From contig RZZR01000003.1 in assembly GCA_009929795.1 (NCBI GenBank), positions 3,747 to 67,746 of the forward strand: a DNA stretch of 64,000 nucleotides. Direction: 5' to 3'. The notes beneath the pieces are model-generated. The model saw only the letters and a list, made by a program, of their open reading frames with translations. It made no database searches and was not told the origin of the DNA. The stretch is from Deltaproteobacteria bacterium. GTDB taxonomy: Bacteria; Desulfobacterota; Desulfovibrionia; Desulfovibrionales; Desulfomicrobiaceae. Positions 13,522 to 33,615 of this stretch are shown in pieces (the stretch's first letter is position 1; every line of letters starts with the position of its first letter). A program made the position numbers and the translations under genes.

Positions 13522-13524
13522 GGC

Positions 13525-14292
13525 CTACTCCCCCTTGGTCTTTTCGTGTTTGAGGTAGTTGTCACCCTGTCGGCGGACCCACTCGCGCTTGGAGTAGTAG
13601 TACACCTGAGGATCCGTGCCCAATTTTTCCAAAAGCCGGAAAGCATATGGACTCTTGGATAGCTTGTGCACTTCGTGCTCCGGGTTCAAAAGATCCCCGA
13701 AATGCATGGCCCCGGTGGGGCAGATATCGACACAGGCCGGAATATAGGCATCCTCGGCCAAATGGCTGGGGTCATGTCCTTCGTGGCGAGCCTTTTCCTT
13801 GGCCGCCATCCAGCGATGGTGGCAGAAGGTGCATTTCTCGACCACGCCCCGGGGCCTGACGGAAGTAAACGGGGTCAAAACCTTGTCCAGTCCTTCGGGC
13901 CAAACCGGGTCGTGCCAGTTGAAGTACCTGGCATGATACGGGCAGGCGGCCATGCAGTACCGGCAACCGATGCACCGGGGGTAGACCTGGCTGACGATAC
14001 CACCCTCCTCGTCTTTGGTCGTGGCTACCACAGGGCAGACCGTAGAACACGATGGATGTCCGCACTGCATGCACGGACGGGGCAGATAGGCCACATCATG
14101 GTTCGGAAAATCCTGCTTATTGGACAACTGATAGACCAGCATCCAGGACAACGTCCTCAATTTGTTGGAGGCCTCGGTCACCGGTGCAACATTGTTCTCG
14201 GCCTGACAGGCGACCATGCAGGCTCCGCAACCCGTGCACTTGTCGATGTCAATGACCATTCCCCATTTTATGTGAAAAGTATGCGCTTGCAT
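13525..14292 (-). CDS. qrcC: Qrc iron-sulfur subunit QrcC (4Fe-4S ferredoxin, HybA-like)
   Basis: CTGCGACMVACQ, CMQCGHPSCSTVCP, CIGCRYCMAACP and CTFC...CVDICP cluster motifs. Confidence 0.75.
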   Translation of the reverse strand: MQAHTFHIKWGMVIDIDKCTGCGACMVACQAENNVAPVTEASNKLRTLSWMLVYQLSNKQDFPNHDVAYLPRPCMQCGHPSCSTVCPVVATTKDEEGGIVSQVYPRCIGCRYCMAACPYHARYFNWHDPVWPEGLDKVLTPFTSVRPRGVVEKCTFCHHRWMAAKEKARHEGHDPSHLAEDAYIPACVDICPTGAMHFGDLLNPEHEVHKLSKSPYAFRLLEKLGTDPQVYYYSKREWVRRQGDNYLKHEKTKGE

Positions 14293-14326
14293 ATCAATAT
14301 CCCTCTTGGTTTCGCTTCAGTGGGTC

Positions 14327-16396
14327 TTAGGCCCTGGACACCGTAATCTGGGGATTGCCGAAGGAGGCTCCGCCCTGGCTGTCAAGGCCCTGGACAAGAA
14401 GCACGTCACAGGCATTGGTCCCCTTGCCTCTGGAGAAATCGTCCCAGGCCGTATGGCCGAAACCCAGGCACGCTGACACGGCCCCGGGCACGACACCTTC
14501 GAAAATCTGAACCCGGCCCTTCATTTCCCCGGACTGGCTGGCAATCTTGACCATGCTCCCCTGATCGACGCCTATCATGGCCGCCGTGGCCTTGTTCATG
14601 GCCACGAAACAATCCTGGCCCTGTAACTCCCGTTCGGAAATGGTCAGAACATTGAAGGGTGGTGTGGCCATCTTGGCACTTCCGATGTTCAACTTGACCA
14701 CCGGAGCCAAAACCAGTTGTCCGTCGGCCCCCTTCTTGCCGAGGTCCGCATCGAACGGAACCTTCCACATTGAGAGGAAGAACTGGAAGGCCGTACGTTC
14801 CGAAGTCCAGGCTTCCCCATCCTCGAGCAGACCCGACCAGTCGGCCCCGAGATTCTCGGCTCTGGCCTGAAGGACCTCTTCGAAAGATTCTAACCCCAGA
14901 CCGAGGCCGAGTTCATCCGCCACAGCAAGAATTATGTCGCCTGCGGTTTTGGTGTCGTTAACCGGGCCGATGACAGGGGCTGTTGCCAGGTATGTTCCCT
15001 TGGCCGAGCCGTAGGGCGTGTAGGAGTCGTCGAATCCCTCAAATGAATAAGACGCAGGAAGGATGAGGTCGGCCATGGCCGCCGTCTCGTCCATGAACGA
15101 ACTGAAACTGACCAGGAACCCGGCCTTCCGCAAAGAGTTTGCCATGCTCTGCCCCCCGGGCAAGGCATAGGCGGGATTGGCCTCGTGGACGAGCATGACC
15201 GCTGGTGCCTCGTTCCGGCCAACCGCGACTCCTTCGAGAAAAGCGACCAGATCTTTCGCCAGCATGGCGTCGCGACGCGGAGCCCCCTCAAACACCGGCT
15301 CGGCCCAGGGCACGATTCGCACCCCACCTTCCTGGTTGATGCGGCCGAGGAGAAAATTGAGGCTCATGCCGGCCGCAGCCTCGAACGTGCTCAATCCCTG
15401 TCCGATTTCAGATCCGATGACCACAACGGGCTTTTTGGCCCGGAGCAGCCGCTCTGAAAGGTCCTTAATCTTGGCGGCCTGAACCCCGGTCTTGGCCTCC
15501 ACCTGGGCCGGGCTAAACCCCTTGCGCACGAAGTCGGAAAATTCGCTCATACCCATGGTGTCGGCGCTTCGACCAGCCTGGATCAGGGCGTTGGCGACAC
15601 CCAAGGCCAGAATGGCCTCGGTGCCTGGCATACAGGGTATCCACTCATCGGCCACAGCCGCAGTCCCATTCTCAACGGGACCGGCATAAAGCAAGGATCC
15701 CCCTGTGGCCTTGGCGTCCATACAGGACTTGCCGACGCCCGGTCCCCACGCCTGGCAGATATCGGCTCCAAGGACCAAGATGCAGTCGGAGTTTTCGAAA
15801 TCGTATCCAGGTTGCCCGTCACCGCCAAAGACATTCTGCCATGCTCGAACCGCCGGTCCGGCCTCGCTGGGCATCAGAAAATACTGATCCGAACCAAGCC
15901 CTGCCACAAGGGCGGCCAAGACCTCGGCCGCGGTGCCGGTCTCGTCTCCGGATATCATAGCCACCTTGTCACCAGCAACCTTAATCTTATCCTTTAAAAT
16001 GGACAAACCCTCGTCCCAGGATATCGGAACCATGGAGGCCCCGTCTTTCTTCATCGGCGATTTGACCCTGGCCGGGCTGTACAGGAGTTGAACGCTGGCC
16101 GCTCCGAGCGGACAGACGCCGCCCTTACTGGCCGGATCCTTTTCGTTCCCGTAGGCTGTGACCGGCCGGCCCCCGACGGTCAACACTTCAACGCCGTATG
16201 CGTCGGGTCCCAATTTACACAAGGCCGACTTTCGATCCAGTGCCCCATAGGACAGGCGCGGAATCCATGGCCAATTCTGAGACCATATGGATGCATCGTC
16301 CAGGAGTTTCCACACAACCGGGGTGAAGAGGATACCGCCGGTGCCACCAGCCAAGAACGAGATAAAGCTTCTTCGATCGAGTCCCATCTTCTTCAT
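14327..16396 (-). CDS. qrcB: Qrc molybdopterin-oxidoreductase-family subunit QrcB
   Basis: Start taken at MKKMGLDRRSFISFLAGG (twin-arginine-like leader) with GAGGGG upstream. The body is a large molybdopterin oxidoreductase-like protein. The listed ORF extends to 16456 but overlaps qrcA. Confidence 0.75.
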   Translation of the reverse strand: MKKMGLDRRSFISFLAGGTGGILFTPVVWKLLDDASIWSQNWPWIPRLSYGALDRKSALCKLGPDAYGVEVLTVGGRPVTAYGNEKDPASKGGVCPLGAASVQLLYSPARVKSPMKKDGASMVPISWDEGLSILKDKIKVAGDKVAMISGDETGTAAEVLAALVAGLGSDQYFLMPSEAGPAVRAWQNVFGGDGQPGYDFENSDCILVLGADICQAWGPGVGKSCMDAKATGGSLLYAGPVENGTAAVADEWIPCMPGTEAILALGVANALIQAGRSADTMGMSEFSDFVRKGFSPAQVEAKTGVQAAKIKDLSERLLRAKKPVVVIGSEIGQGLSTFEAAAGMSLNFLLGRINQEGGVRIVPWAEPVFEGAPRRDAMLAKDLVAFLEGVAVGRNEAPAVMLVHEANPAYALPGGQSMANSLRKAGFLVSFSSFMDETAAMADLILPASYSFEGFDDSYTPYGSAKGTYLATAPVIGPVNDTKTAGDIILAVADELGLGLGLESFEEVLQARAENLGADWSGLLEDGEAWTSERTAFQFFLSMWKVPFDADLGKKGADGQLVLAPVVKLNIGSAKMATPPFNVLTISERELQGQDCFVAMNKATAAMIGVDQGSMVKIASQSGEMKGRVQIFEGVVPGAVSACLGFGHTAWDDFSRGKGTNACDVLLVQGLDSQGGASFGNPQITVSRA

Positions 16397-16404
16397 CCCC
16401 TCGT

Positions 16405-16950
16405 TTATTTGTGACACACGAAGCAGGCATTGCTGGCGCCATTCTCGGCGTGGCAACGCTCACACTCCCACATTTTCATGGTCTGCTTGCTGTATTTGGT
16501 CAGCCTGTTCTCGTAGTACACCGGCAAAGTCTCGTTGAAGGCCATGTCCGGATGGCAGGCCGTGCAGTCCACACCGTCATGGGCGATGTGGGAGAAATAC
16601 ACGTTGTCCGGCTGCTTCTGATAGACATACCATGGTACTTCCTTGTAGTCGCCTTCATTGACGTACTTCTCGACGAACTCAATCTCTGCGGGATCGTCCC
16701 CCATGGGGGCCTCGTGGCAACTGGCGCAGCTTTCCGTTGTCGGAAGGCCGGCGTAGGATCCGTCCTCGCGATAAAAATGGCAGTCTTCGCAGGACATAGC
16801 CTGGTCTTCCACGTGCACCTTGTGGCTGAACTGGAGTGGTTGCGTCTTCTCGCTGTAGAGCAACTGGGGGAACCCCCACCAGCCGAGAAAGAGCGAAGCC
16901 ACAAAACCCGCCACAAAGGGCAGTACAACACAGCTCTTCTTTTTCGACAC
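16405..16950 (-). CDS. qrcA: Qrc membrane-anchored multihaem cytochrome c QrcA
   Basis: GTG start at 16950, 8 nt after GGAGG. N-terminal TM anchor. Five CXXCH motifs counted (CEDCH, CASCH, CTACH, CERCH, CFVCH). Confidence 0.75.
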   Translation of the reverse strand: MSKKKSCVVLPFVAGFVASLFLGWWGFPQLLYSEKTQPLQFSHKVHVEDQAMSCEDCHFYREDGSYAGLPTTESCASCHEAPMGDDPAEIEFVEKYVNEGDYKEVPWYVYQKQPDNVYFSHIAHDGVDCTACHPDMAFNETLPVYYENRLTKYSKQTMKMWECERCHAENGASNACFVCHK

Positions 16951-17046
16951 CTTGTTAACCTCCGTTCCAGAGAATTGAAAAGAACCCCAGCATCCTGACA
17001 AAAGCCCGGATCAACCTATGCAACACCCCGAAGAGGTGTCAAGAGC

Positions 17047-17846: not shown

Positions 17847-18150
17847 GCTCAATCCTTGAATATCGAAAAAAATGTGTGGCGATGGCCGAAAAACGTCCGC
17901 ATCACGGGCCCGTCTACATCAAGGGAGCAAAGGCTGCAAACACTTTCTTAAAGCCTGTTGAGAACCTCTCTGGACAAGCTCACAAACGGTCCTAAAAAGA
18001 ACTATGACACTTCGAAAAATCAAGCCTCCAATTTGGCGAACTGGATTCTGGCTCGTCTTCACCGTCCTGACCATCGGCGCCCATCTCTTGTCGGCCCTTC
18101 CGGTCGGTGGCGGATTAGTGTCCACAAGAACCTTCAGCAAGGATACGAAA

Positions 18151-18552
18151 ATGACCGACAACAAGCCCGACATCAAAGCCCAGAAACGAACACTGACCCC
18201 AGAACAATTCCGAATCACCCAGGAGAAGGGTACTGAGCGCCCGTTTACCGGCACCTATTGGAACCACCATGAAGATGGAATCTATGACTGCGTCGTCTGC
18301 GGTAACAGTCTCTTCCAATCCGTGGACAAATTCGATTCCGGGACGGGCTGGCCGAGCTTCATCGCTCCGGTAGCCCCGGATGCCATTCGAACCCTTCCGG
18401 ACACATCCCATTTCATGGACCGCACCGAGGTGCTCTGCGGGTCTTGCGACGCCCATCTAGGCCATATCTTCGACGATGGCCCAGGGCCCACGGGCCTGCG
18501 GTACTGCATCAACTCAGGTGCCTTGCTGTTTCGACCTTCCCAAGACCTATGA
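18151..18552 (+). CDS. msrB: Peptide-methionine (R)-S-oxide reductase MsrB
   Basis: [18 protein letters not shown]...[11 protein letters not shown]...[11 protein letters not shown]...[19 protein letters not shown]...RYCINS. The ATG at 18151 has AAGGA upstream. The longer listed ORF (18004) would add a TM-like leader without an RBS. Confidence 0.85.
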
Positions 18553-21500
18553 CCGGCCCAAGAAACCCGGTCGCACATCCTCGGGCCAACCCACCATGGC
18601 CTCGATCATGGACATGATCTGGACTGTTTCGGATCCCTGCAGCCTTATAGCCCCGGATCGACAGGAGGCCACGCACAGTCCGCATCCCTTGCACAGGGTC
18701 GGCTGGATGGAGGCTCTTCCGGTCGTTTCGTTCCAGGCAGGGGCCGAGTAGGGGCAGACAATCACGCAGACCCCGCAGGCCACGCAGTATCGGGGGTCAA
18801 CAATGGCTACGGCCCCGGGGACGGATATCCTGTCCCGAGCCAGGAGGGTCACGGCTCGAGCCGCAGCAGCCTGGGCCTGGGCAATGGACTCATCGATGGG
18901 CTTGGGACCGTGGGCCATGCCGCAGACGAAAACGCCTTCCGTGGCGAAATCGACGGGCCGAAGCTTGACATGGGCCTCAGCGAAAAAACCGTCCTCGTCC
19001 TGGCTGATCTTGTACAACCGGGTCAGTCGATTGTCCTTTTCGGCCACGATGGCCGTTGCCAGAACAAGCATTTCCGGGCGGATGGACATCTTTCGGCGAA
19101 GCACGCAGTCCGAAAACCCGACCTCCAGACCTTCGTTGTCCACTTCCACGGTCAACCCCTTGTCGTAGCAATAGCGTATGAACCGGATCCCGGCCGTCCG
19201 GGCCTTCTGGTACAAATCCTCCTGAAAAGCGTAAGGCCTCATGTCCCGGTACAGGACGAAGATGTTCATATCTGGATTGAGTTCCCGCATCTTCATGGCG
19301 CTCTTGATGGTCTGGGTGCAGCAAAGCTTGGAGCAATATGGTCGCTCCGGAATCCTTGATCCTACACATTGAACGAGAACCACGCTTCGCAACCGGGCCA
19401 GCTCCTCGGGAACGTCGATGAACTTTCTCTGCAACTCGAGTCTGGTGAGCACTCTCGGGCTTCGGCCATACCCCATCAGGTCAGGCTTCAATTCCGAAGC
19501 CCCGCTGGCGACAATGGTCACCCCGTGCTCCACGACCACCTCATCACCCTGACAACCTCGAACCGTGGACCGAAAATTGCCGACAAACCCCTCGGCCTCG
19601 ACCACCTCCGATTCCATGTGAATTAAAATCAGCGGATCGCTTCTGACCGCGTCGATCAGACCCTGGAGATAGGCCTGCACGTCCTCGCCCCGCCAGGTAC
19701 GCTGAATGAACCAAGCATTGCCTCCCAAATGGGAGGTCCGCTCGACGATATGAACAGGAAAGCCCTGGGCCGAGAGGCTCCTGCCTGCCTCCATCCCGGC
19801 AACTCCCCCTCCCACTACTAGAACTGCCTTGCCCACTTCGAGCTCGGGATCCCTGAGGGGAACGGACAGGGCTACCTTGGCCACAGCCATCCGTAACAGA
19901 TCCTTGGACTTGTTCGTGGCCGCTTCAGGCATCTCTCTATGGACCCAGGAGCACTGATTCCGGATGTTTGCCATCTCGAAGAGATATTTATTGATCCCGG
20001 CCTTGATCAGGGTCTCCTGAAAAAGGGCCTCGTGGGTCTTGGGCGTGCAGGCTGCCACGACCACCCTGTTCAACCCCTGCTCCCGGATGACAGCGGTGAT
20101 CTTTTCCTGGGTGTCCTGAGAGCAGCTGAACAGGTTCACCTCCACGTGGACCACACCAGGAAGGCTTCGGGCAAAGACCTCCAGTTCTTGCATCCTGACT
20201 ACGCCGGCGATGTTGGTTCCACAACAGCAGAGGAACACCCCGATCCGGACCGGGTCTTTGGAGGTGTCCAGTTCCATCGGAACCGGCCTGGTTTTGGTTA
20301 GGGTCCACCTGGCAGGACCGAGCAGCTTTCCGGCCAGGCCCGCAGCCGCGCTTGAATCTATGACCGAAGTCGGGATGTCCTTAGGCGCTTGGACCGCCCC
20401 GCAGACGTAGATCCCGGGCCGGGATGTCTCGACCGGAGAGAAGCTTCCTGTGTCCACAAATCGATAGCTGTTCAGCCGAACTCCGAGGGCCTCGGTCAGG
20501 GCCAAGCCTCTGCCGGAAACGGCCAGTCCGGCCGAAAGCACGACCATATCGAAGGATTCCTCGACGATTGCCCCCGTGTCGTCCACATACCGGACGGCGT
20601 GGCAACCGTTTTGATCCAGGACACCCACGGTTGAAATTTTTGATTTAACAAACCGCACGCCGGCCTCGTCCCTGGCCCGGTTGAAATACCGCTCGAAATT
20701 CTTTCCGTTGGTTCTGATGTCAATATAAAAGATTGCCGTGTCCAAAAACCCCTTGCTGTGCCCCTTGGCCAACATGGCCTCCTTGACCGCAGCCGTGCAG
20801 CAGACCGAGGAACAATAGCCTTGGGCACCCTTGTGCAGATCCCGGGATCCGACGCATTGCAGCCAAGCGATCTTTTTGGGCTCCCGACCGTCTGAAGGCC
20901 GCAGGAGATGCCCTCCGGTGGGTCCCGAAGACGAGAGAAGGCGCTCGAACTCCATATTGGTGACGATGTTTGGAGAATTGAGATACCCGTAGGTGTCCAC
21001 GGCCCCGGGGTCGAAAGCCTCGGAACCCGTGGCCAGGATCACGGCCCCGACCTGAAGGGTGCGCTCCCGGACCGTGTCGGTGAAATCGATGGCCTGGTTC
21101 GGGCAAACTTTGGCGCAGGCGCCACATTTACCCTTTTGCAGGTAAATGCAGTGTTCGGGATCGATGGCATATTTCAGGGGCACGGCCTGCGCGTATTTGA
21201 GATAGATCGCCTTTCGTTTTTTGAGGCCCTGGTCGTACTCGTCATCGACCTTCTTCGGGCATTTTTCTGCGCATAGGCCGCAGGCGATGCACTTAGACGT
21301 ATCCACGTAACGTGGATGGATTCTCAGACGAACCTCGAAACTTCCGGCCTCGCCCGTGACCGACGTGACCTCGGACAGAGTCAAAAGTTCGATATTGATA
21401 TGCCGGCCGACCTCGACCAGTTTGGGCGAGATGATTCACATGGCGCAGTCGTTGGTCGGAAAGGTCTTGTCCAACTGAGACATCATCCCTCCGATCGAGC

Positions 21501-21618
21501 TGGTCCTTTCCGATAGGTACACTTGGTACCCGGAGTCAGCCAAATCAAGGGCTGCCTGCATACCGGCCACACCTCCCCCGATCACCAAAACGGATCCGAT
21601 GCACGTCTCGGCACTCAT
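18547..21618 (-). CDS. hdrA: HdrA-like FAD/FeS oxidoreductase, tandem two-module form, selenoprotein (in-frame UGA at 21436-21438 read as Sec)
   Basis: Listed ORFs 21436..21792 and 18547..21384 are in one frame and joined by TGA: ...[32 protein letters not shown]..., the conserved HdrA motif where Cys or Sec occurs. The ATG at 21618 follows GGAGGG and overlaps the hdrB stop (ATGA). There are two Rossmann motifs ([15 protein letters not shown]; [14 protein letters not shown]), several CxxCxxCxxxCP ferredoxin motifs and an MvhD-like CCCG segment. Confidence 0.8.
21403..21420 (-). other. Candidate bacterial SECIS hairpin
   Basis: It begins 16 nt after the UGA: CUGGUCG-AGGU-CGGCCGG. The stem is 7 bp including two G-U pairs, with a GU-containing tetraloop. 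Confidence 0.4.
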
Positions 21619-22463
21619 ATTCCCTCCTCGCTTGTCGTAGTATCCAAAATCCTCGACGCCAATTCGCTCCCCATCCCAAGGGCCGCCGGGTCCAGGCCCA
21701 TGGCCAAGCCCAGCAGTTGCGGATAGAGGATCGGCTCCACATCCGTGGCCCTTGCGGCAAACTGCGCTTGGCAAAACGGACAGGCCGTGCACAAATACCG
21801 GGCACCGGCGGATCTTGCGCTTTCGATCTTGCGGTTCATGATCGTCGTGGACAGTTCATTGTCGACGGCTCGCAGGGGCGCACCACAACACTCGAGTCGA
21901 AGGTCCCACTCGACGCTTCGAGCCCCGGTCTGGGCGATAAGATCCTCAAAAATTGTCGGTTTATACGGGTCGTCAAAATTGGTGACATCGCTCGGCCTCA
22001 AGGCGTGACATCCGTAGTGAGGGGCCAGTGGCAGGCCTTTGAAAAGCCGAACGACCTTGGTTTCGAGTGCCTGAAGGCCCACGTCGTGACGTAGAACGCT
22101 CAAGACGTGACGGATTTTGACCTCCTGCCCCAGACCGAGCCCGACTCTGCCAAGATGGCGCGCTATCTCCGCCCTGGCCTCGGGCTCCTCCCGAAGAAAC
22201 TGGCGAGCCTTTTTCAAGGTTCCGAAACAACACGCGCACAAGACCAGCAAATCCAGTCCGGCCTGTTCGGCCAAGGCCAGATTCCTGACCGCCGAAACCA
22301 AGAAGGACAGCCGATCAATGTTGCGCATTGGATATCCACAACACCCGAAGGCCGAAATGTCCAGCAGGTCCACCCCCAAGGATTGAAGCACCGCCCTGGT
22401 CGAAGTCTCGTACTGAGGAACCAGGGCCGGGGCCGTGCAGCCGATAAAAAAGGCGAATCGCAT
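21615..22463 (-). CDS. hdrB: HdrB-like heterodisulfide reductase subunit (two CCG domains)
   Basis: FFIGCTAP...FGCCGYP and HYGCHALRP...ECCGAP, plus a C-terminal CTACPFC. RBS GGGAGG. Confidence 0.75.
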
Positions 22464-22466
22464 GAT

Positions 22467-24191
22467 TCAGACCTCCCGCCTGGACAGTCCGATTTCAGCC
22501 ACGGCCGTGTGCTTTAGTCGGTAGAAAAGGTCTACGATCCTGACCTGCTGGGGACAATATTCCTGACATTTATAGCAGGTCAGGCACTTCCAGATCATCT
22601 TGCTCCCCAAAGCCATCTCGGTCAGACCAAGCCCTAGGCAGCACATGATCTGGTGGGGAAGAAGCCCCAGCTCCTTCTCCGGATTCTCGTAACTCATGAC
22701 CACCGGGCAGAGCGTCGTGCAGGTCTGGCAGCTGAAACAATAGGAAAAGGTCTTGTTCCTAGACAATTGGGCCGCCAGTTTGTTTTCCTGATCCACAAGA
22801 GGAATGGGGCCTGCCGGATTCCGGAAACCTCCCCGGATGAGGTTGAAGGCGGCTTTGGAGTCAACTTCGAAATCCCTACACGCGTTCATGACGGAGCGGG
22901 CGAAGAAAAACGGAGACAGCGCGAAAGGCTCCGGACCATGCTCCCTGACCAGCACGTTTCGAGCCTCAAGCCAGATGGACTTCAGATCGATACCGGAAGG
23001 ACAGAGTGCCGTGCACCTTCCGCAGCTCGAACAGACCGACACTCCCTGGCGAAGGGCTTCCCGCTCCTGCCTGGTCAGGCCAAGGCCCAAAAGCGTCCTC
23101 CTCAGGGCCTGAACCTTTTCGCCAGGAAGCACGAGGTCATTGTCCAAGGTCCAGGACGCGGCCATGGCCGAGCAGTTGGCACTGCACTCCCCGCAATGGG
23201 TGCAGGCATCCAACTCCAAAACCCGCCTGGTCATAAAATTCTCGGCAGTTGCGGTTCCCAGTCCCGACACCCTGCGGACGATGAGGCTGAGCGGCGTGGC
23301 CAAAATGTGAAACATCTTGGTGAAGGGCAACGAGGCCAGCCCAAACAGAGTCAAGAGCACGTGAACCCACCAGAGCATATCCACGGCCCGAAAATGGTTC
23401 CACTCCAGGGCCAGGGGGGAAAAACCCCGAGCCAAGGCGAAACTTACAGGAGCCCATCGGCTCGGAGCATGGCAAAATGCACAGGCCTCTTCGTTCACCT
23501 CTCGGCCCTTGTCCAACACCTCTGGATCGAAGGGACGCCCAACCCGGTGGGAAACCAGTCCGCACTCGGCCGCCCAAAAGGACTCCAGAGCCGGAACGTC
23601 GTCAGGGTCGACGGACGAGTAGTCACTGACCATCCGGTCAAACTCGTCCATTGAGGTCATCTTCATGGCCTGCAGGCCGAAGCCCGAACAGACGATACCG
23701 CCGACCAAGGCCAGGGCGATCCAGTCCCTGGCCGAAGACAAAACATGCTTTCTGATCCGTCGGACCACGGCCACGGCCACTCCGGACAGGACCAGGGCGC
23801 CAGCCGCATCGCGGAGAAAGAACCAGGGGTTCAGGCTCGATTGGTAGTCGGAAAAAAGTTCCTCGGTCACCATCCCATCCAGGGCGTGGAAAAGGACCAA
23901 ATAGAGAACTCCCCAGAAGATGGCACCGTGCATGATCCAGCGCTGGAGACTTCGCTTCCGGGTCCGCTCGAGCAGGAAGACGTCCAGAACCGTGGCCAGG
24001 CCGAGATCACGAAATCCCCGCCCCCGGGATAGGCAGCGCCAGGTACCGGACAGGGCCGCACCTGTCCTGCGCCAGACCGAAGCCCCTCCGGTCTCCCCTT
24101 CCAAACACCGCGAGAACCAGCCGTAGACCCGATACAGAATTCCCAGGATGCAGACCGCAACAGACAACCAGAGCAGGACATCGTAGACCAT
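22467..24191 (-). CDS. Membrane cytochrome-b-like (NarI/DsrM/HdrE-type) domain fused to a double HdrC-like 4Fe-4S domain
   Basis: Start taken at MVYDVLLWLSV (AGGAG upstream). About 5-6 TM helices carry paired His (IMHGAIFWGVLYLVLFHAL; WWVHVLLTLFGLASLPFTKMFHIL). The cytoplasmic part follows with CTHCGECSANC, CSSCGRCTALCP, CFSCQTCTTLCP and CLTCYKCQEYCP. Confidence 0.7.
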   Translation of the reverse strand: MVYDVLLWLSVAVCILGILYRVYGWFSRCLEGETGGASVWRRTGAALSGTWRCLSRGRGFRDLGLATVLDVFLLERTRKRSLQRWIMHGAIFWGVLYLVLFHALDGMVTEELFSDYQSSLNPWFFLRDAAGALVLSGVAVAVVRRIRKHVLSSARDWIALALVGGIVCSGFGLQAMKMTSMDEFDRMVSDYSSVDPDDVPALESFWAAECGLVSHRVGRPFDPEVLDKGREVNEEACAFCHAPSRWAPVSFALARGFSPLALEWNHFRAVDMLWWVHVLLTLFGLASLPFTKMFHILATPLSLIVRRVSGLGTATAENFMTRRVLELDACTHCGECSANCSAMAASWTLDNDLVLPGEKVQALRRTLLGLGLTRQEREALRQGVSVCSSCGRCTALCPSGIDLKSIWLEARNVLVREHGPEPFALSPFFFARSVMNACRDFEVDSKAAFNLIRGGFRNPAGPIPLVDQENKLAAQLSRNKTFSYCFSCQTCTTLCPVVMSYENPEKELGLLPHQIMCCLGLGLTEMALGSKMIWKCLTCYKCQEYCPQQVRIVDLFYRLKHTAVAEIGLSRREV

Positions 24192-24207: not shown

Positions 24208-25068
24208 TCAATAGTCCGGGGGGAGCCGATCCAGCTCGGCCTTGGTGAAAACCGGACCGTCCTTGCACACGTAGTAGGGTCCGACGTTGCAGCGCCCGCA
24301 AATCCCAATCCCGCATTTCATCCGGTTTTCAAGGCTGAGAAAGATTCGGTCCGCGGTCCAGCCCAGCGAATCGAACACCGGCTGGGTGAAGCGGATCATG
24401 ACCGGAGGGCCGCAGACCAGAGCAATGGAGTTGTCCGGACTCGGGGCCACCTGACCGACCACGTTCGGGACGAACCCGACCAGACCGTCCCATCCCTCCG
24501 CCTCGCGATCCACGGTGACGTGACAATGGACATCGTCCCCGAAACGTGCCCATCGATCGAGTTCCCGACGATAGAGAAGCATGCCGGGAGTCCTGGCCCC
24601 ATAGATGAAATCGATCCGACCGTAGTCCTTCCGGTGTTCCGGCGAGAGAAGCCAGTTCATAGTCGCCCGCAAGGTGGTGACCGCGAATCCCCCGGCCACG
24701 ATGACCACGTTGCGCCCCCGATTTTCCTCCAATGGATAGGGCCTGCCCAAGGGGCCCCGGACCCCCATCACGTCACCGGCCTGCATATTGTGCAGGGCCG
24801 TGGTTACCCTTCCAGTCCTGTTAACCGTGAACAAAAGATTCCGCCCCTCTGTGGGGCTGGACGCAATGCCAATGGGAATCTCCCCGTGACCGGCCAGGCT
24901 CAGTTCGGCGAACTGACCGGGCATGTAGTTGAATTCCGGGGCGTCGTCCGGGTCGAGACGCTCGAGCCAATAGGAACGTAGCTGTCTGTCCTCGGTTTCC
25001 ACGGCGACGTCGACGATCCGCGCCGGGGTAGGCACGTACGGGTTACTCACGAACGCCCTCCGCCTCAT
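24208..25068 (-). CDS. flxA: FlxA-like FAD/NAD(P)-binding oxidoreductase with C-terminal [2Fe-2S] (PyrK/AsrB type)
   Basis: PGQFAELSL...IASSP (FAD-binding), VVIVAGGFAVTTL (NAD-binding), CGIGICGRCN (cluster). An alternative GTG start at 25050 lies 6 nt after GGAGG. Confidence 0.65.
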   Translation of the reverse strand: MRRRAFVSNPYVPTPARIVDVAVETEDRQLRSYWLERLDPDDAPEFNYMPGQFAELSLAGHGEIPIGIASSPTEGRNLLFTVNRTGRVTTALHNMQAGDVMGVRGPLGRPYPLEENRGRNVVIVAGGFAVTTLRATMNWLLSPEHRKDYGRIDFIYGARTPGMLLYRRELDRWARFGDDVHCHVTVDREAEGWDGLVGFVPNVVGQVAPSPDNSIALVCGPPVMIRFTQPVFDSLGWTADRIFLSLENRMKCGIGICGRCNVGPYYVCKDGPVFTKAELDRLPPDY

Positions 25069-26101
25069 TCATCCGGGCCACAATCTCCCGGACGTCGATG
25101 TTTACCGGACAGAGCCGTGTGCACCGCCCGCAGCCCACGCAGCCCATCATACCATTTCTGCGCATGGGGATATACTTGAACTTGTGCATGAATCGCTGTC
25201 GGAACCGATCGGTCTTGGTTGCCCGGGGATTGTGACCCGAGGCGTGCTGGGTGAAAAGCCTGCTCATGCAGGTGTCCCAGTTTCTGACCCTTTGCCCCGA
25301 GGCTCCAGACACCTCGTCCTGGATGTCAAAACAGTGACAAGTGGGACAAAAAAAGGTGCACGCTCCGCAGTTCAGACAGGTGAAGGCCGCCTCTTCCCAA
25401 AATTTCCGGTGAAACAGATCGAGAACTTCGGCCTCGGCAATATGGTCCGTATAAACGGCCACGGCCGCTGCCGCCTCGGCCTGCCTGCGGCGCCGACCGG
25501 CCCGCACCGAATCTCCCCGCTTGGGTGAGGGAAGGCCTTTGACCAATGTCTCGCCTGCCTCGGACAAAACCCTGACCACATAGCCCTCGCCCACATCCAC
25601 AAACAGGAGATCAAACCCTTCCTCGTGGTGAGGCCCACACTGCATGGCCATGCAGAAACTGGACGGGCAGGGCTCGTTGCAGGCTAGGCCGACCAGAATC
25701 GAATTCTGCCGCTTGGCCTGCCAGTAGACATCCGGGCAGGCGGGATCCTGAAGAAAGATGGCATCCAAAAGAACCAGGGACCGAGCCTCGCAGGGCCTGA
25801 CGTTCAGAATGACCAGCCGTTCGGAATCGAAAGGCACGGGCCGCATGACCATGCCCTCGGGAGATCTCGGTTCATTCAGAAACCTCATCATACACTCGGT
25901 CTGGGGAAAAAACAGCGACTTGAGTGGCGTGACCGTGTTGACGAATTCTCGGATCATGTGTCCGAAATGCTGCACCGGCCCCCAGTCAGGTCCTGCGCTG
26001 GTCTCCACCGGGGCCAGAACCGGCATTCGTTCCAGAACCCCCTGGGCCCATTCTTCCAGGCGATCTTTGGTCACGTATCTGTTTTTCCTCGCCACCGACA
26101 C
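25043..26101 (-). CDS. flxB: FlxB-like iron-sulfur protein (AsrA / sulfhydrogenase beta type)
   Basis: CLNCGACTFFCPTCHCF and CVGCGRCTRLCP motifs. Positioned between flxC-like and flxA-like genes. Confidence 0.6.
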   Translation of the reverse strand: MSVARKNRYVTKDRLEEWAQGVLERMPVLAPVETSAGPDWGPVQHFGHMIREFVNTVTPLKSLFFPQTECMMRFLNEPRSPEGMVMRPVPFDSERLVILNVRPCEARSLVLLDAIFLQDPACPDVYWQAKRQNSILVGLACNEPCPSSFCMAMQCGPHHEEGFDLLFVDVGEGYVVRVLSEAGETLVKGLPSPKRGDSVRAGRRRRQAEAAAAVAVYTDHIAEAEVLDLFHRKFWEEAAFTCLNCGACTFFCPTCHCFDIQDEVSGASGQRVRNWDTCMSRLFTQHASGHNPRATKTDRFRQRFMHKFKYIPMRRNGMMGCVGCGRCTRLCPVNIDVREIVARMNEAEGVRE

Positions 26102-26102: not shown

Positions 26103-27068
26103 TCACGTATTGAAGATCAGGAAATCTTGAGAATCTTCGGACTTGAAGGACATCAGCGGCTGACGGTCCACAGGGTCCAGCCCGGGCTCATGGCCGTAGA
26201 GAAATCGGACGTCCTTTTCCAGCTTAGCGGTCAGTCTCCGCACCTTCACTCCCACCGGACAGGCCGACTCACATGCACCGCAATCCGTGCAACGTCCGGC
26301 ACAATGCAGTGCCCGCAAAAGATGAAACGTCTGGACATCGGCCTCGTCCTGTCCCTTGCCGCACCATTGGGGCCTGCTTTCGTCGACGAAGCATACCGGA
26401 CAATAGCACAGGGGGCAGGCGTCCCGGCAGGCATAGCACCGGACGCAAGACGCAAAGGTCGAGACAAAGGATCGCCATCGGTCGGAGGCCTCCAAGGATT
26501 CCCAAGGCGCGGCGACCATGTCCAGATTCCCGCCACCGGTCTCGTCCACCGGGGAAGCGGCCAGAAAGTCGTGAATCACCGGATTGCGATGCATGCAGGT
26601 CATGCAATTGTCGCGGCGCATGTGGGCTCGAACAAGGCGCTCCTCGAAATCCATCCCCCGAACCGTGATCTCCCCTTCCCCGTCGTCGACGACCTCAAGG
26701 ATTGTCCGGCCTCCGACCTTGGCCTGGATTTTCCGTCGATCCAGCATTCCCAGGCATGGAACCCCCAGAAACACCACCCTGTCCCGCTCGATCTGCCTCT
26801 CCTGAATCAGCCCGACGATGTTGCGACTCACGCAACCCTGGGCGACGATGCCGATCCGGCCTTTGAAACCCGACAGATACGTGGCCGGGTTGCCGACACA
26901 GAACCCGGACCAGATCAGTTCGCCGACCTGGGACGAATCCCGGATCAAAATGGGCCTGTCCCGCATGGGCACCGTGCCCCGGGCGTGACCGAGCACGGCA
27001 TCGACCCGTCCCTCGTCCAGAATTGCGGCAGCGAATTCTCGAATGGCCAGGGTTCTCTCCGTCAGCAT
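26103..27068 (-). CDS. flxC: FlxC-like iron-sulfur protein
   Basis: Start at MLTERTLAIREF, an ATG that overlaps the flxD stop (ATGCTGA). Motifs CVRCYACRDACPLCYCPVCF and CTDCGACESACP. The listed 425-aa ORF is an upstream over-extension. Confidence 0.6.
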   Translation of the reverse strand: MLTERTLAIREFAAAILDEGRVDAVLGHARGTVPMRDRPILIRDSSQVGELIWSGFCVGNPATYLSGFKGRIGIVAQGCVSRNIVGLIQERQIERDRVVFLGVPCLGMLDRRKIQAKVGGRTILEVVDDGEGEITVRGMDFEERLVRAHMRRDNCMTCMHRNPVIHDFLAASPVDETGGGNLDMVAAPWESLEASDRWRSFVSTFASCVRCYACRDACPLCYCPVCFVDESRPQWCGKGQDEADVQTFHLLRALHCAGRCTDCGACESACPVGVKVRRLTAKLEKDVRFLYGHEPGLDPVDRQPLMSFKSEDSQDFLIFNT

Positions 27069-27556
27069 GGCCCGGCCCCTTCTTCGATCTTTTTGACCAG
27101 CCTCGTGTTCGGCCCCAGCCCTCTGACGGTCTCCACCACCTCCGTGGCCGTCCGTCGAAAGGCCTCGGCCTCGGCCGAAGAGATCCAGGAGAAAAGAACT
27201 CTTCCCGGCTCCAGTCCCACATACTCCAGAAGATTCTTCAGCAGGGCGAAACGACGCCTGGCATGGAGGTTGCCTGAGATGTAGTGGCAGTCTCCAGGAT
27301 GGCAGCCCGAAATCCAGACCCCGTCGGCTCCCCGGCGAAAGGCCTGAAGAACGTAGCGGGCATCGAGTCCTCCCGTGCAAGGAAGTCGGACGACCCGAAA
27401 ATTAGGTGGATACTGCATTCGGCCTACACCGGCCAGATCGGCCGCGCCGTAGGTGCACCAGTTACAAAAAAAAGCGACGATCCTCGGCTCGAACTGCTCC
27501 ACCAAGTTCTCCATGACCAAAGGTTTCGGATCGATCCTCGATACCTTTCTATACAT
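27062..27556 (-). CDS. flxD: MvhD/FlxD-like hydrogenase iron-sulfur (delta) subunit
   Basis: IVAFFCNWCTYGAADLAG...VVRLPCTG...GADGVWISGCHPGDCHY is the MvhD signature. Confidence 0.75.
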   Translation of the reverse strand: MYRKVSRIDPKPLVMENLVEQFEPRIVAFFCNWCTYGAADLAGVGRMQYPPNFRVVRLPCTGGLDARYVLQAFRRGADGVWISGCHPGDCHYISGNLHARRRFALLKNLLEYVGLEPGRVLFSWISSAEAEAFRRTATEVVETVRGLGPNTRLVKKIEEGAGPC

Positions 27557-27612: not shown

Positions 27613-29562
27613 CTACTGAAACAACCGGGTTATGATTTCCTTGTATTTTCGCTCAATGACATGACGCTTTTTCTTCAAGGTGTTGGTCAATTCCTCGCCA
27701 AGTTGGAACTCCCGGTCAAGAAAAGAAATCCGATGCAGTTTCTCGTAAGGCTTGAATCCTTTCCTGGTATCGAGCAATTTGTTCATCTCCTTGCGAATGC
27801 CTTCGAGTATGCTCGAATCGCTCAAAAAATCTTCTGTTTCCTGAGAGATGCGTTGGTATTTGCGCCTCAAGTACTCGCGCAGTTCCTCCATGTTCGGCAC
27901 GATGAGGGCCCCCAGCCCCTTCTGGTCTTGGCCGACCAGCACGGCATCGTTCACAAAAGGAAACATGGAGATGGTCGCCTCGATCCGACTGGGATCCACA
28001 TTTTCTCCGCTGGTCAGGACGATGATCTCCTTGGATCGTCCGGTGATCACCAATTCTCCTGTGACGGTCAGCATCCCGAGATCTCCGGTCCGGAAAAACC
28101 CGTCGGCCGTAAAGGCCTTTCGATTCTCCTCATCGGCCATGTAATACCCGCCGAAGACCTGCCCCCCCCGGACCTGGATCTCGCCCTCATGCCCTGGGGG
28201 AAGAGGCTGATCTCCATCGTCTGCGATCCTCAGTTCCGTTTCCGGCACCGGAGGCCCGAGGGTTCCGAAAACAGGACAATTCCAACCTCTGCCGGCGATG
28301 CCCGGCGAACATTCGGTCATGCCATAGGCATTGACGATTCTGATGCCCAGGGCATCGATCCATTCGTCGAGATAGGCCGGCAGACTTCCCCCTCCGCTGA
28401 TGGCCATTCTCAGACGGCCTCCGAATCGCTCCTGAACAGCAGACAATTTTTTCCGAGCAAGGCAGTACGGCAGGGCCAATGCCGCCATGGCCCAAAAAGC
28501 TCTGGCCCTGTCGATCGCCACCCTGAACCGCCCCGGCCTCACAAATACCGGCAGTTCATTGCGGACTATACGCCGATTTCTGCGGTAGGCCTTGGAGGTC
28601 CAGACCAAGGCAGCAAAAATCCGCTCGGGCCAAACCCCCTTCTTCCGCACGGCCGCCTGGATTCGGTTGTACAGGGACTCCCAGAGCCTGGGGACACTGG
28701 CCACCAGGGTCGGCTTGTACTCGGCCAAATCAGCGGCAAAGGTTTTGATCGAGGAGTAGACGATTTCGCTCCCCCGAGCGACCGAAAGGTACTCGGCGGT
28801 CCGCTCGAAAATGTGCCAAGTCGGGAGGACCGAGAGCCATCGGTCCTTTTCGGTCAGCCCGATCAGCCCCGGCAGGTTGACGATGTTGTGGTGGATGTTG
28901 GCATGGGTCAGAACAACCCCCTTGGGGACCCCGGTGGTTCCCGAGGTGTAGATGATGGTCATCGGATCCTCGGGCAGAATGTTTCGGGCCGCATCAAGAA
29001 ATTCGTCTCGATCCTGGGCGGTGAAGGTGCGCTCTCCAAGAATATCGGCATAGGAAAAAACGCGGTCGAACCAGCTCCCCCGACCTTCACCGGCGATGAC
29101 TAATGTGGTCATCACGCCTTTGATGCCTTTGATCGTCTCTTCGTGACAGCCTAAAAGCTCCGCTGTTTCGAAGATCAGATGTGAACATCCGGAGTGCTCG
29201 AGAATGAACCGCAACTCCTGAGATGGTGCATCGCTGCCTCTGGGCACGCTGATGGCCCCCAGGGACTGAAGGGCCATGTCGGTCACGATCCATGCGTAAC
29301 GGTTGTCCGAAAGGAGAAGAACCCGCTCCCCCTTCTGAATTTTCTTCTTGGCGAAAGCTCTGGACAGGAGCAGGACGTCCTCAAGGAACTTTTCGTAGGT
29401 CACCTCAAACTCCTGCTCTCCGGCCCTGTACCGGAAAGCCGGGCGATCCTTGAAACGTTGGCACGCCTCAACAAAGACCCCGATGACCGTTTTCCTCTCG
29501 AACTCCATCCCATCCCCCGGTTTGCCCGACCTGTTGATCAAGCCTCGAACCTCAGACACCAT
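27613..29562 (-). CDS. Long-chain acyl-CoA synthetase (AMP-binding enzyme)
   Basis: AMP-binding motif IIYTSGTTGVPKGVVLTH, plus GYGMTE-like NAYGMTECS and TGDLG. The start is uncertain (29562 or 29508). Confidence 0.8.
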   Translation of the reverse strand: MVSEVRGLINRSGKPGDGMEFERKTVIGVFVEACQRFKDRPAFRYRAGEQEFEVTYEKFLEDVLLLSRAFAKKKIQKGERVLLLSDNRYAWIVTDMALQSLGAISVPRGSDAPSQELRFILEHSGCSHLIFETAELLGCHEETIKGIKGVMTTLVIAGEGRGSWFDRVFSYADILGERTFTAQDRDEFLDAARNILPEDPMTIIYTSGTTGVPKGVVLTHANIHHNIVNLPGLIGLTEKDRWLSVLPTWHIFERTAEYLSVARGSEIVYSSIKTFAADLAEYKPTLVASVPRLWESLYNRIQAAVRKKGVWPERIFAALVWTSKAYRRNRRIVRNELPVFVRPGRFRVAIDRARAFWAMAALALPYCLARKKLSAVQERFGGRLRMAISGGGSLPAYLDEWIDALGIRIVNAYGMTECSPGIAGRGWNCPVFGTLGPPVPETELRIADDGDQPLPPGHEGEIQVRGGQVFGGYYMADEENRKAFTADGFFRTGDLGMLTVTGELVITGRSKEIIVLTSGENVDPSRIEATISMFPFVNDAVLVGQDQKGLGALIVPNMEELREYLRRKYQRISQETEDFLSDSSILEGIRKEMNKLLDTRKGFKPYEKLHRISFLDREFQLGEELTNTLKKKRHVIERKYKEIITRLFQ

Positions 29563-29702
29563 CTCTGCGCCTCTACAGGGACTCGGCCTTCCGGGCAAGC
29601 GGAACATGCCTCAATGCGATGGCCTTGCCCTGGAAGTGTTTTTCGGGCATTCTCATCAGCACAGGACAGTCCCACTTCTAAACGGCATTTGGAGTCACGA
29701 TC

Positions 29703-32071: not shown

Positions 32072-32980
32072 CTACCCGCCCTGAATGAGCTGCATGGCCA
32101 TCCTGGGCAGCGAGTTGGCCTGTGAAAGCATGGCCACGGCGGCCTGGGTCAGAATCTGATTCCGGACGAACTCGGTCATTTCTGCAGCGACATCCACGTC
32201 GGAGATCCGGGATTCAGCGGCCTGGAGATTCTCGGCCTGGATGCTCAGATTGGTGATGGTGTTGGCCAACCTGTTCTGCATGGCACCGAGATTGGCGCGG
32301 ATATTGTCCTTAGAAGTGATGGCTGCGTTTAGGGCATCCAGCGCGTTCTGGGCCAGGGCCTGTGTGGAGATGGAACGACCGGCGTTTTCAGCGAGGGTAG
32401 TACCTCCTCGGGCGCCAAAACCGACTCCCAACGCCGAAGCCGTGGCCGCGCCGATTCGGATGTAATAGTAGTCTTCAGCGCTGTCGTTGCCTGCTCCGAA
32501 ATGGATCTTCAAATCACCACTCGACTGCAATCCCGTACCTTCATGCGCGCCCGATAATGTTCCGTCCAAGAGCTTGATGCCGTTGAAATCAGTAGCCATG
32601 GCGATTCGGGTGATTTCCGAGGCCATGGCTTGGTACTCGGAGTCGATGATCAGTCGCTGGGCCGACGTGTAGGTGCCCGTGGCCGCCTGGGTCGCCAGCT
32701 CCTTCATCCGGATGAGTTTCTCATCAATGACCCCCAAGGCCCCGTCGGCCGTCTGGATCATCGAGATGGCATCGTTGGCGTTTCTGATGCCCTGGTTCAT
32801 TGAAGCGATGTCCGCCCGCATGAGCTCGCGGATCGCCAATCCGGCGGCATCGTCGGCCGCCGTGCCGATCCGGAGCCCCGAAGACAGTCGCCTGGTTGAC
32901 ACACCCAGACTGTTGTACGCATTGGACAGATTCCGGGTGGCATTCATTGCCATGAGATTATGGTTGATGACTAAAGACAT
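32072..32980 (-). CDS. fliC: Flagellin
   Basis: N-terminus MSLVINHNLMAMNATRNLSN...RLSSGLRIGTAADDAAGLAI and C-terminus NRLANTITNLSIQAENLQAAESRISDVDVAAEMTEFVRNQIL. Confidence 0.95.
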   Translation of the reverse strand: MSLVINHNLMAMNATRNLSNAYNSLGVSTRRLSSGLRIGTAADDAAGLAIRELMRADIASMNQGIRNANDAISMIQTADGALGVIDEKLIRMKELATQAATGTYTSAQRLIIDSEYQAMASEITRIAMATDFNGIKLLDGTLSGAHEGTGLQSSGDLKIHFGAGNDSAEDYYYIRIGAATASALGVGFGARGGTTLAENAGRSISTQALAQNALDALNAAITSKDNIRANLGAMQNRLANTITNLSIQAENLQAAESRISDVDVAAEMTEFVRNQILTQAAVAMLSQANSLPRMAMQLIQGG

Positions 32981-33011
32981 GGTGAAACCTCCTTAGGCTT
33001 TTTCAGAATTA

Positions 33012-33027
33012 TGCAATCAAGGGGCCA
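33012..33027 (-). promoter_or_regulatory. Sigma-54 (-24/-12) promoter candidate for the flagellin gene
   Basis: The minus strand reads TGGCCCCTTGATTGCA, with GG and GC at exactly the consensus spacing of TGGCAC-N5-TTGCW. It lies 31 nt upstream of the ATG and is followed by AAGGAGG. Confidence 0.55.
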
Positions 33028-33141
33028 AAAAATTATATATATTTAAAACAGTATATTAAGTATATTTTTGGCCATTTTTTCCCTTTCATGTCATCCTTCC
33101 GGCCTTAAAAATCCTCCCATCCGTCATTTTTTTCCCACCCC

Positions 33142-33169
33142 TAAAGTTTCAAGTGCTTTCGGCCGATTA
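33142..33169 (+). promoter_or_regulatory. Sigma-28 (FliA) promoter candidate for flaG
   Basis: TAAAGTTT-N12-GCCGATTA against the consensus TAAAGTTT-N11-GCCGATAA. It lies about 30 nt upstream of the flaG ATG. Confidence 0.6.
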
Positions 33170-33198
33170 TTGTTATGACCATCAAGGAGGTAAGAAGC

Positions 33199-33591: not shown

Positions 33592-33615
33592 GTCGGACCA
33601 TGTCTTGGCCTCCCA

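Follow-up and report, generated by a model that had tools for sequence, protein, structure and literature searches.

A conserved HdrC-type protein with a NarI-like cytochrome domain as the probable membrane subunit of an HdrABC-type complex

How a normally soluble, electron-splitting heterodisulfide reductase (Hdr) might be wired to the membrane is the question raised by one gene in a 64,000-nucleotide (nt) stretch of a Deltaproteobacteria bacterium of the Desulfomicrobiaceae (contig RZZR01000003.1, assembly GCA_009929795.1). The whole stretch is called the window below; coordinates are positions in it, and residue numbers refer to the 574-residue product of this gene. The gene stands in the hdrC position of an operon, and its product, here called the anchor, would supply the wiring as a membrane anchor. 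How electrons pass between menaquinol, NAD(P)H, ferredoxin and DsrC in sulfate reducers is still debated (PMC4215793; PMC5947623), and the HdrCBA-MvhD-MetVF complex of Sporomusa ovata is membrane-associated, has no subunit with a transmembrane (TM) helix, and its quinone-linked partner is unidentified (PMC9430772). An HdrC that carries a dihaem-b membrane domain, probably together with a haem c, is thus a concrete candidate for the link of a bifurcating Hdr to the membrane. Judged from its sequence, the module is probably a conserved, uncharacterised membrane-anchored variant of the HdrABC type with a likely added haem c, and it involves no new principle.

The anchor gene is one unbroken minus-strand frame from the ATG at 24191 to the stop codon at 22467. 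The segment GGCAAGGAGCACCG, with a GGAG ribosome-binding site, lies directly 5' of this ATG, which is 16 nt past the stop codon of the preceding hydG-like gene. A longer reading from TTG 24308, given in the mechanical list of open reading frames (ORFs), was rejected as unneeded; it runs into the end of the upstream gene. Kyte-Doolittle hydropathy gave five hydrophobic helices at residues 1-22, 86-106, 125-146, 157-176 and 270-292 (TM1 to TM5). The first-pass annotation had counted "5-6" helices, and the sixth was not retained: the stretch 248-266 is moderately hydrophobic, and six helices would place the Fe-S domains in the periplasm. Conservation was judged from a GTDB scan with one genome per species, in which at least 560 stretches encode a relative; the counts of loci, and those given out of 80 relatives, refer to the best 80. 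Averaged over these 80 sequences, the net charge is +6.1 for loop 1-2 and +4.0 for loop 3-4, and -1.1 for loop 2-3 and -10.1 for loop 4-5. By the positive-inside rule, loops 1-2 and 3-4 are therefore predicted to be cytoplasmic and loops 2-3 and 4-5 to lie outside. The topology prediction that had been suggested as a check thus yields five helices with the N-terminus out and the C-terminus in.

The ligand pattern of this membrane domain was as anticipated. TM2 holds H88 and H102, TM5 holds H277, and H295 comes just past its end; both histidine-containing stretches that had been likened to NarI-type ligands are present. All four histidines, together with all 16 cluster cysteines, are invariant in 80/80 relatives of 40-46% identity, and so are C237, C240, H241 and M187. 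Because of this invariance, the His/Cys pattern is well beyond chance. H277 and H295 are 18 residues apart, and the His pair on TM5 of NarI is likewise separated by 18 residues. The Pfam model PF02665 (Nitrate_red_gam), whose family takes in NarI, DsrM, HdrE and the EMO/EtfD membrane domain, scored 22.9 bits on the window protein, equal to its gathering cut-off of 22.9, and matched 15/15 aligned family members (best E 1e-11). An AlphaFold2 model of residues 1-320 (22-sequence alignment, pLDDT 74) gave Mycobacterium smegmatis EtfD (9ojn) as the best Foldseek match in the PDB (prob 1.00, E 9.8e-3, TMq 0.44). Escherichia coli NarI chains came next (prob 0.90-0.97, TMt ~0.44), and everything else had prob <=0.15. 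For this modelled domain the scores are hence modest but specific.

Behind the membrane domain come four CxxCxxCxxxC motifs, whose first residues are 330, 387, 485 and 536. Ser follows the motif at 330 and Pro each of the later ones, so the motif count of the first-pass annotation stands, with the first motif deviating from the CxxCxxCxxxCP form. The idea that the motifs make up two equivalent HdrC-like units did not survive. The first dicluster domain resembles the cubane domains of GlpC, SdhB, HmcF and TmcB, and is of the type placed after the membrane part in HdrF/EMO/EtfD-type proteins. Residues 477-570, by comparison, match HdrC of the Methanothermobacter Elp-Hdr complex (8rvu_c, 6.3e-18) and 5odc_C (4.2e-15), with a Foldseek prob of 1.00 against HdrC. 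The HdrC equivalog model TIGR03290 gave E 1e-13 and 51.4 bits, below its cut-off of 160 and with the C-terminal half of the model unmatched. On these homologies the two cluster domains are not equivalent, and only the C-terminal one is identified as HdrC proper. Of the domain matches that had been proposed as a check, nitrate-reductase-gamma (at threshold) and the Fe-S cluster domains were found in the anchor. A CCG domain was not: both the PF02754 match and the CCG motif are absent from the anchor protein, and CCG domains occur in the next gene.

The fusion is not peculiar to the window. The identical protein and about 20 clusters of 570-590-residue proteins with 35-47% identity came up in a word-indexed search of 5.8 billion proteins, and a profile search of 1.84 billion cluster representatives returned 245 clusters at E <=1e-30. 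The best 80 relatives are full-length or nearly so, and nearly all come from metagenome-assembled genomes (MAGs) of Desulfobacterales or Thermodesulfobacteriota. Among their carriers are Eth-SRB2, Ca. Desulfaltia, Desulfosalsimonas, Desulfatiglandales and two closed MAG chromosomes. The module is thus carried by partners of alkane oxidisers such as Eth-SRB2 and by at least one cultured species, Desulfosalsimonas propionicica (MBA2881571.1). The Desulfobacterales-type carriers belong to a group that includes complete-oxidising sulfate reducers. Annotators had already noticed the hybrid, as reflected in an IMG name and in the NCBI name "putative heterodisulfide reductase, hybrid of subunit". The NCBI starts of two database entries (P0178 and P0180, 541 residues) are 49 residues late compared with a third (P0177, 590 residues), and TM1 is lost; automated topology predictions for those entries would therefore be wrong.

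What accompanies the anchor gene across genomes was examined in those of the 80 loci that had enough flanking sequence for each test. The next gene is hdrB in 75/76 loci, followed by the N-terminus of hdrA in 64/66. The only well-flanked relative with neither hdrB nor hdrA after the anchor is that of Desulfococcaceae bacterium HSG9 (L002). When all flanking ORFs of the 80 loci were clustered, no further neighbour was kept in more than about a quarter. A bare three-gene operon of anchor, hdrB and hdrA is found on a 231-kb contig (L081). The conserved unit is anchor-hdrB-hdrA. The fusion of an HdrC-like unit to a NarI-type dihaem-b-like domain, proposed from the window alone, was found intact and conserved, with hdrB and hdrA next to it.

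Upstream of the anchor gene in the window stand four genes of Flx-like character, and together they form a seven-gene minus-strand operon, mvhD-fdhB-hydB-hydG-anchor-hdrB-hdrA, with gaps or overlaps of -26 to +16 nt. An orthologous mvhD-fdhB-hydB-hydG set (42-64% identity) was found in only 6/80 loci (L003, L010, L020, L026, L078 and L080), always downstream of hdrA and in some cases cut by the contig end. No hydB/hydG-like gene was found upstream of the anchor in any of the 41 loci having at least 4 kb of upstream sequence (0/41). A NuoE-like ORF recurs in 16 loci. In a closed MAG chromosome (L062; CP070768, 12798-21300), only about 60 first codons of hdrA, up to the selenocysteine position, follow hdrB. 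According to Pfam they are followed by a NuoE-like gene, a NuoF-like gene, a 1081-residue fusion of the NuoG N-terminus to HdrA, and a GltD/NfnB-like gene. A similar gap of about 3 kb between hdrA pieces exists in L017, L030, L031, L033 and L041, Pfam having been run on L062 only. The L062 genes are reminiscent of BamGHI/BamE, the electron module of class II benzoyl-CoA reductases. Because the Flx-like or NuoEF-type neighbours vary between loci, the module is best described as anchor-HdrB-HdrA, with NAD(P)H-type input modules as interchangeable accessories. No ETF-like or GlpA-like gene was found in the operon or among the conserved neighbours of the 80 loci, the rest of the window being unscanned for etf.

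The two partner genes in the window are tightly linked to the anchor gene: hdrB starts 3 nt beyond the anchor stop codon, and the hdrA ATG overlaps the hdrB stop codon (ATGA). Residues 10-560 of the hdrA product align with HdrA from residue 146 to its end, and the methanogen N-terminal domain is absent. Residues 597-925 form a second HdrA-like flavin domain, which is followed by a C-terminal 2x[4Fe-4S] ferredoxin domain. As the second half matches an HdrA-like flavoprotein (6tjr) and not GltD, the protein is named tandem HdrA, and its reading as HdrL, an HdrA-GltD fusion, was rejected. At the position of the in-frame TGA codon of hdrA, TGA occurs 64 times among relatives, against 6 occurrences of TGT (Cys); hdrA therefore bears a selenocysteine signature. 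Gene callers split hdrA into two ORFs. A SECIS-like hairpin is present a few nt after the TGA codon, but its energy is no different from that of shuffled sequences (z = -0.07). The gene set had also been equated with that of the Desulfovibrio Flx-Hdr complex, which does not hold for hdrA: this 1023-residue tandem protein with selenocysteine is of another type.

A further feature of the anchor, absent from the first-pass annotation, is the CxxCH motif with a Met in the predicted periplasmic loop between TM4 and TM5. This loop of about 93 residues has a family mean net charge of about -10. In an alignment of membrane domains, about 60 of its residues are an insertion compared with loop-less HdrF/EMO-like proteins (P0023-P0026, P0176). 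The insertion bears F-x-x-M-V-x-[DE]-[YF], which includes M187, and C-x-x-C-H, which spans C237 to H241. The CxxCH motif keeps its position in nearly every family representative of at least 480 residues, P0046 being the sole exception, and it occurs as well in HdrF-type proteins with a CCG domain (P0074, P0083, P0124, P0130). The fourth histidine, H102 on TM2, goes with the loop: all loop-containing sequences have it, and the loop-less ones aligned lack it and keep three His. Since the loop is predicted to be periplasmic, the side on which c-type haems are attached, haem c is the simplest reading of CxxCH. By this sequence pattern, the loop probably binds a haem c covalently next to the distal haem b, and the distal ligand of the haem c would be M187 or possibly H102.

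Two relatives carry related features of their own. One HdrF-type protein (P0027, 721 residues, from a 26-sequence cluster) has no loop insert and shows a signal-peptide-like segment and CTLCH before TM1. Judged by its sequence, the protein may carry a periplasmic monohaem c module joined to the opposite end of the membrane domain, and this N-terminal CxxCH therefore suggests that an outward-facing haem c was gained more than once in the superfamily. The other (P0074, L082 757-2892) has the same membrane domain and CxxCH loop with a CCG domain in the same chain. Its gene is flanked by a GcvH-like (lipoate-carrier-type) gene and two LplA-like lipoate-ligase fragments, a context that recalls the link of lipoate-binding proteins with sulfur-oxidising Hdr-like systems.

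Taken together, homology and gene order make the anchor most likely the membrane subunit of a conserved three-gene HdrABC-type complex. As a general model, we lean somewhat towards a membrane-anchored complex of this type that couples bifurcation or confurcation to the membrane. In this model, the proximal haem b would be held by H88/H295 and the distal haem b, near the periplasmic face, by H102/H277. HdrC would dock to HdrB and HdrA as in solved HdrABC, and bridge the clusters of HdrA and the non-cubane clusters of HdrB. As in EMO/EtfD and DsrMK, the chain would run on through the extra cubane domain to the proximal haem b, and electrons would pass from there to the distal haem b and then to the loop haem c. 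The entry or exit point of NAD(P)H would be the second flavin domain of HdrA and, in the window organism, perhaps also the adjacent MvhD-, FdhB-, HydB- and HydG-like proteins. HdrB would act on a thiol/disulfide substrate, for which DsrC is the customary candidate in sulfate reducers (PMC5947623, PMC4215793). Overall, electrons would be bifurcated or confurcated among NAD(P)H, ferredoxin, menaquinone and a disulfide, for example DsrC, and the reaction would be sensitive to the proton-motive force because electrons would cross the membrane dielectric. It could drive uphill steps, as does the reverse redox loop of EMO, or conserve energy, as does the redox loop of NarGHI. The proposed interaction of the anchor with quinone is drawn by analogy with its relatives. 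As an alternative or an addition to quinone, the CxxCH/Met loop opens a possible cytochrome-c-type link to the periplasm, and the probable haem c may give access to periplasmic cytochromes c. The most complete form of the proposal is a b/b/c tri-haem cytochrome fused to HdrC, in which a CxxCH haem c with M187 or H102 as distal ligand sits in the loop of a NarI-type cytochrome b by the distal haem b. This would make it the first HdrABC-type bifurcating enzyme wired across the membrane; its NAD(P)H/ferredoxin/disulfide chemistry would be tied to menaquinone or periplasmic cytochromes and, through them, to the proton-motive force. We offer this whole combination tentatively, as a possibility to be taken seriously but with considerable doubt.

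Several points weigh against the anchored HdrABC model and its haem c. The formation of a complex with HdrB and HdrA is deduced from synteny and homology. The PF02665 match of the window protein lies only at threshold and covers the TM5 region only, no Foldseek match of the modelled membrane domain reached E <=0.001, and the confidence of the structure models is moderate (pLDDT 72-74 overall). The two His on TM2 are 14 residues apart in the anchor versus 10 in NarI, and no quinone site is identifiable from the anchor sequence. A haem c with His/Met ligands is usually of high potential, a poor fit with the low-potential chemistry of Hdr.

With these points in mind, other explanations of the same locus have to be weighed. 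The operon might encode an obligate FlxABCD-HdrABC complex that works as in Desulfovibrio vulgaris, with NADH oxidised and DsrC and ferredoxin reduced, and is simply tethered to menaquinone. The mvhD-, fdhB-, hydB- and hydG/flxA-like genes directly precede the anchor gene with overlaps or gaps of at most 16 nt, and the orthologous sets adjoining the module in six other loci agree with such an assignment. Yet those six of 80 sets lie on the other side of the module, and hydB/hydG-like genes are missing upstream of the anchor in all 41 loci with sufficient sequence. Bare three-gene operons such as that of L081 occur, and other loci have NuoE/NuoF-type genes instead or no such neighbours at all. 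Moreover, the HdrA here is a tandem selenoprotein with its own second flavin domain, and an FdhB-like protein occupies one of the two FlxB/C positions. We therefore regard an obligate Flx-Hdr complex as unlikely. The name "membrane-anchored Flx-Hdr", given to the locus earlier, fits the window reasonably, where the Flx-like genes abut, but not the family, because the Flx-like set occurs in only 6/80 loci; a general co-occurrence of the fusion with flx genes across genomes did not appear. At the other end of the chain, the anchor might be a Tmc/Hmc-style conduit whose outside partner is the periplasmic cytochrome c pool, reached through the loop haem c, with quinones as no substrates at all. 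The invariant CxxCH and Met on the predicted periplasmic face, the signal peptide and periplasmic N-terminal CxxCH of P0027 as a recurrence of an outward haem c, and the cytochrome c and Qrc-like complex encoded nearby in the window are all in its favour. However, quinones or methanophenazine are the partners of EMO, EtfD, NarI, DsrM and HdrE, the nearest characterised relatives of this membrane domain, and one putative haem buried in a 90-residue loop offers a small docking surface, so that a conduit of this kind is improbable in our judgement.

The anchor could also belong to an EMO-like, non-bifurcating NAD(P)H:menaquinone oxidoreductase, with HdrB as a relay, tandem HdrA as a plain dehydrogenase and CxxCH in a structural, metal-binding or disulfide role. 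The HdrB-like domain of EMO is indeed an electron relay with no catalytic site, and the membrane and first cubane domains of the anchor have their nearest counterparts in HdrF/EMO-type proteins, P0074 among them. NADH oxidation has also been proposed as the role of large HdrA subunits that carry additional flavin domains (PMC4759654; PMC9430772). Against this, HdrC is complete, HdrB is still a protein of its own, and HdrA keeps the conserved Sec/Cys cluster ligand; this is the full bifurcating core, which a simple dehydrogenase would not need. The His right after the second Cys in every member also favours haem c over a disulfide, and we hold a simple dehydrogenase to be quite improbable. Finally, the membrane and Fe-S parts might be two genes joined by a frameshift or by misassembly, since the window comes from a MAG and some database entries of relatives begin 49 residues later, without TM1. 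An undetected frameshift had been named as a way in which the fusion could fail. The frame is continuous with no internal stop codon, and the best 80 loci, including a cultured species and closed MAG chromosomes, share the 570-590-residue architecture in independent assemblies. An artefact was thereby ruled out and can be given next to no weight. The membrane-anchored HdrABC-type complex remains our preferred reading.

The features of the window on which this analysis draws are collected in the following table.

Table 1. Positions of the anchor gene, its domains, its operon partners and a Qrc-like cluster in the window
Feature	Position	Strand	Basis or size
Anchor gene, NarI/EtfD-like five-helix cytochrome domain and two 2x[4Fe-4S] domains; hdrC position of operon	22467..24191	-	574 aa
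Membrane domain, aa 1-300, five TM helices, predicted N-terminus out/C-terminus in	23292..24191	-	hydropathy, positive-inside, PF02665, Foldseek
TM4-TM5 loop, aa 177-269, predicted periplasmic, acidic, with invariant M187 and W206	23385..23663	-	alignment, positive-inside
C237-A-F-C240-H241, CxxCH haem-c-type motif	23469..23483	-	80/80 relatives
First dicluster domain, aa 321-416, motifs at C330 and C387; HdrD-N/GlpC/SdhB-C type	22944..23231	-	sequence comparison
Second dicluster domain, aa 477-570, motifs at C485 and C536; HdrC proper by homology	22482..22763	-	homology to solved HdrC
hdrB-like gene, 282 aa, two CCG domains (CCG at residues 41, 192)	21615..22463	-	PF02754 6e-23, TIGR03288 4e-59, Cys pattern
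Tandem hdrA-like gene, 1023 aa	18547..21618	-	homology
In-frame TGA within hdrA, read as selenocysteine	21436..21438	-	codon comparison
hydG/asrB/flxA-like gene, 286 aa; FAD-binding, NAD(P)-binding and [2Fe-2S] domains	24208..25068	-	domain matches
hydB/asrA-like Fe-S protein gene, 352 aa (Fer4_22); FlxB/C-like position	25043..26101	-	
fdhB/frhB-like Fe-S protein gene, 321 aa; ATG 27068	26103..27068	-	1e-21 to FdhB, Fdh-Hdr-Fmd complex
mvhD/flxD-like gene, 164 aa, first operon gene	27062..27556	-	PF02662 FlpD 6.8e-51
Multihaem cytochrome c (Qrc-like cluster)	16405-17001	-	
Molybdopterin-oxidoreductase-like protein (Qrc-like cluster)	14327-16456	-	
4Fe-4S protein (Qrc-like cluster)	13525-14292	-	
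NrfD-like membrane protein (Qrc-like cluster)	12286-13521	-	

Around the anchor-hdrB-hdrA unit, gene starts needed some correction. The ATG of the fdhB-like gene overlaps the mvhD stop codon, and the 425-residue ORF listed for the fdhB-like gene was over-extended, so that it masked the mvhD-like gene in the raw ORF list. A scan of the operon for promoters and terminators found nothing exceeding the shuffled expectation. Upstream of the operon lies an AMP-binding gene of the acyl-CoA-ligase type (27613-29607, -), and downstream, on the opposite strand, an MsrB (SelR) gene (18004-18552, +). Flagellin and flagellar hook genes stand further out (32072-35392, -). No functional link of these AMP-binding, MsrB or flagellar neighbours to the Hdr operon was evident. 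A Qrc-like quinone reductase cluster occupies 12286-17001 (-); because it includes a multihaem cytochrome c gene, the host evidently makes periplasmic c-type cytochromes.

Among known systems, the membrane half of the anchor is closest to the HdrF/EMO group. Cryo-electron microscopy of EMO, the ETF:(methyl)menaquinone oxidoreductase of Syntrophus aciditrophicus, shows a domain of this type in the orientation predicted for the anchor, N-terminus outside and C-terminus inside, with a proximal haem at H87/H251 and a distal haem at H233, and EMO-like membrane domains have three His (bioRxiv 10.64898/2026.08.18.745454). H88 of the anchor matches H87, and H277/H295 match H233/H251, both pairs being 18 residues apart. 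Transferred to the anchor, the EMO topology also puts the TM4-TM5 loop outside, in line with the positive-inside prediction. EMO, EtfD and HdrF resemble the anchor in having an N-terminal five-helix NarI-like haem domain followed by a 2x[4Fe-4S] cubane domain, and EtfD (9ojn) is the best structural match of the anchor's membrane domain. HdrF1-3 of Desulfobacterium autotrophicum consist of a transmembrane region with HdrC-like and HdrB-like domains, and are encoded beside glpAB or etfAB (PMC2702500). Thus EMO and HdrF differ from the anchor in carrying an HdrB-like CCG/non-cubane domain in the same polypeptide and in being paired with ETF or GlpAB, whereas in the anchor a second cubane domain, HdrC proper, replaces the CCG domain, and a separate hdrB and then a tandem hdrA follow. 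Although HdrF/EMO are the closest relatives of the membrane half, the anchor was placed outside this group, as it lacks the CCG domain and has no ETF or Glp genes beside it. Unlike the loop-less HdrF/EMO-like relatives, it also has the fourth histidine H102 and the CxxCH insert of about 60 residues, which a few HdrF-type proteins share (P0074, P0083, P0124). A survey of non-cubane-cluster enzymes describes tri-, di- and mono-haem b membrane domains, and leaves a c-type haem and an HdrA-linked membrane form unmentioned (bioRxiv 10.64898/2026.08.18.745454). In the literature we found no description of the anchor-HdrC architecture or of the CxxCH loop, though an earlier mention may exist.

Like the anchor operon, soluble HdrABC and FlxABCD-HdrABC contain an HdrC domain, an HdrB with two CCG motifs and an HdrA with a Cys/Sec cluster ligand. 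Compared by gene type, FlxABCD-HdrABC also shares with the window the MvhD-like and FlxA-like neighbours. These soluble complexes have no transmembrane segment, whereas HdrC in the anchor is extended by cubane and cytochrome domains. The HdrA encoded here further differs from that of soluble HdrABC in lacking the methanogen N-terminal domain and in being duplicated in tandem.

QmoC likewise unites an HdrC-like dicluster domain and an HdrE/NarI-like cytochrome b in one polypeptide, with HdrA-like flavoproteins as partners. In QmoC, however, HdrC comes first, only one dicluster domain is present, and the Qmo complex is without HdrB. Orthology with QmoC was hence rejected on the reversed domain order and on the qmoC model NF038018, which gave 40.3 bits versus a cut-off of 300 and covered the HdrC part only. 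In DsrMK, HdrED, HmcEF and TmcBC, a NarI-type cytochrome b is joined to cytoplasmic HdrC/HdrB-like Fe-S proteins, which connects the membrane or the periplasm to thiol/disulfide reduction. Unlike in the anchor, the cytochrome there is a separate subunit that works with an HdrD-type fusion partner and without HdrA, and in DsrMK, Hmc and Tmc the c-type haems reside on separate periplasmic subunits (DsrJ, TmcA, HmcA) and not in a loop of the cytochrome b. The module described here would therefore extend the EMO/HdrDE theme, recently resolved structurally, to a bifurcating enzyme, and it points to a subfamily of NarI-type domains with an unreported CxxCH insert.

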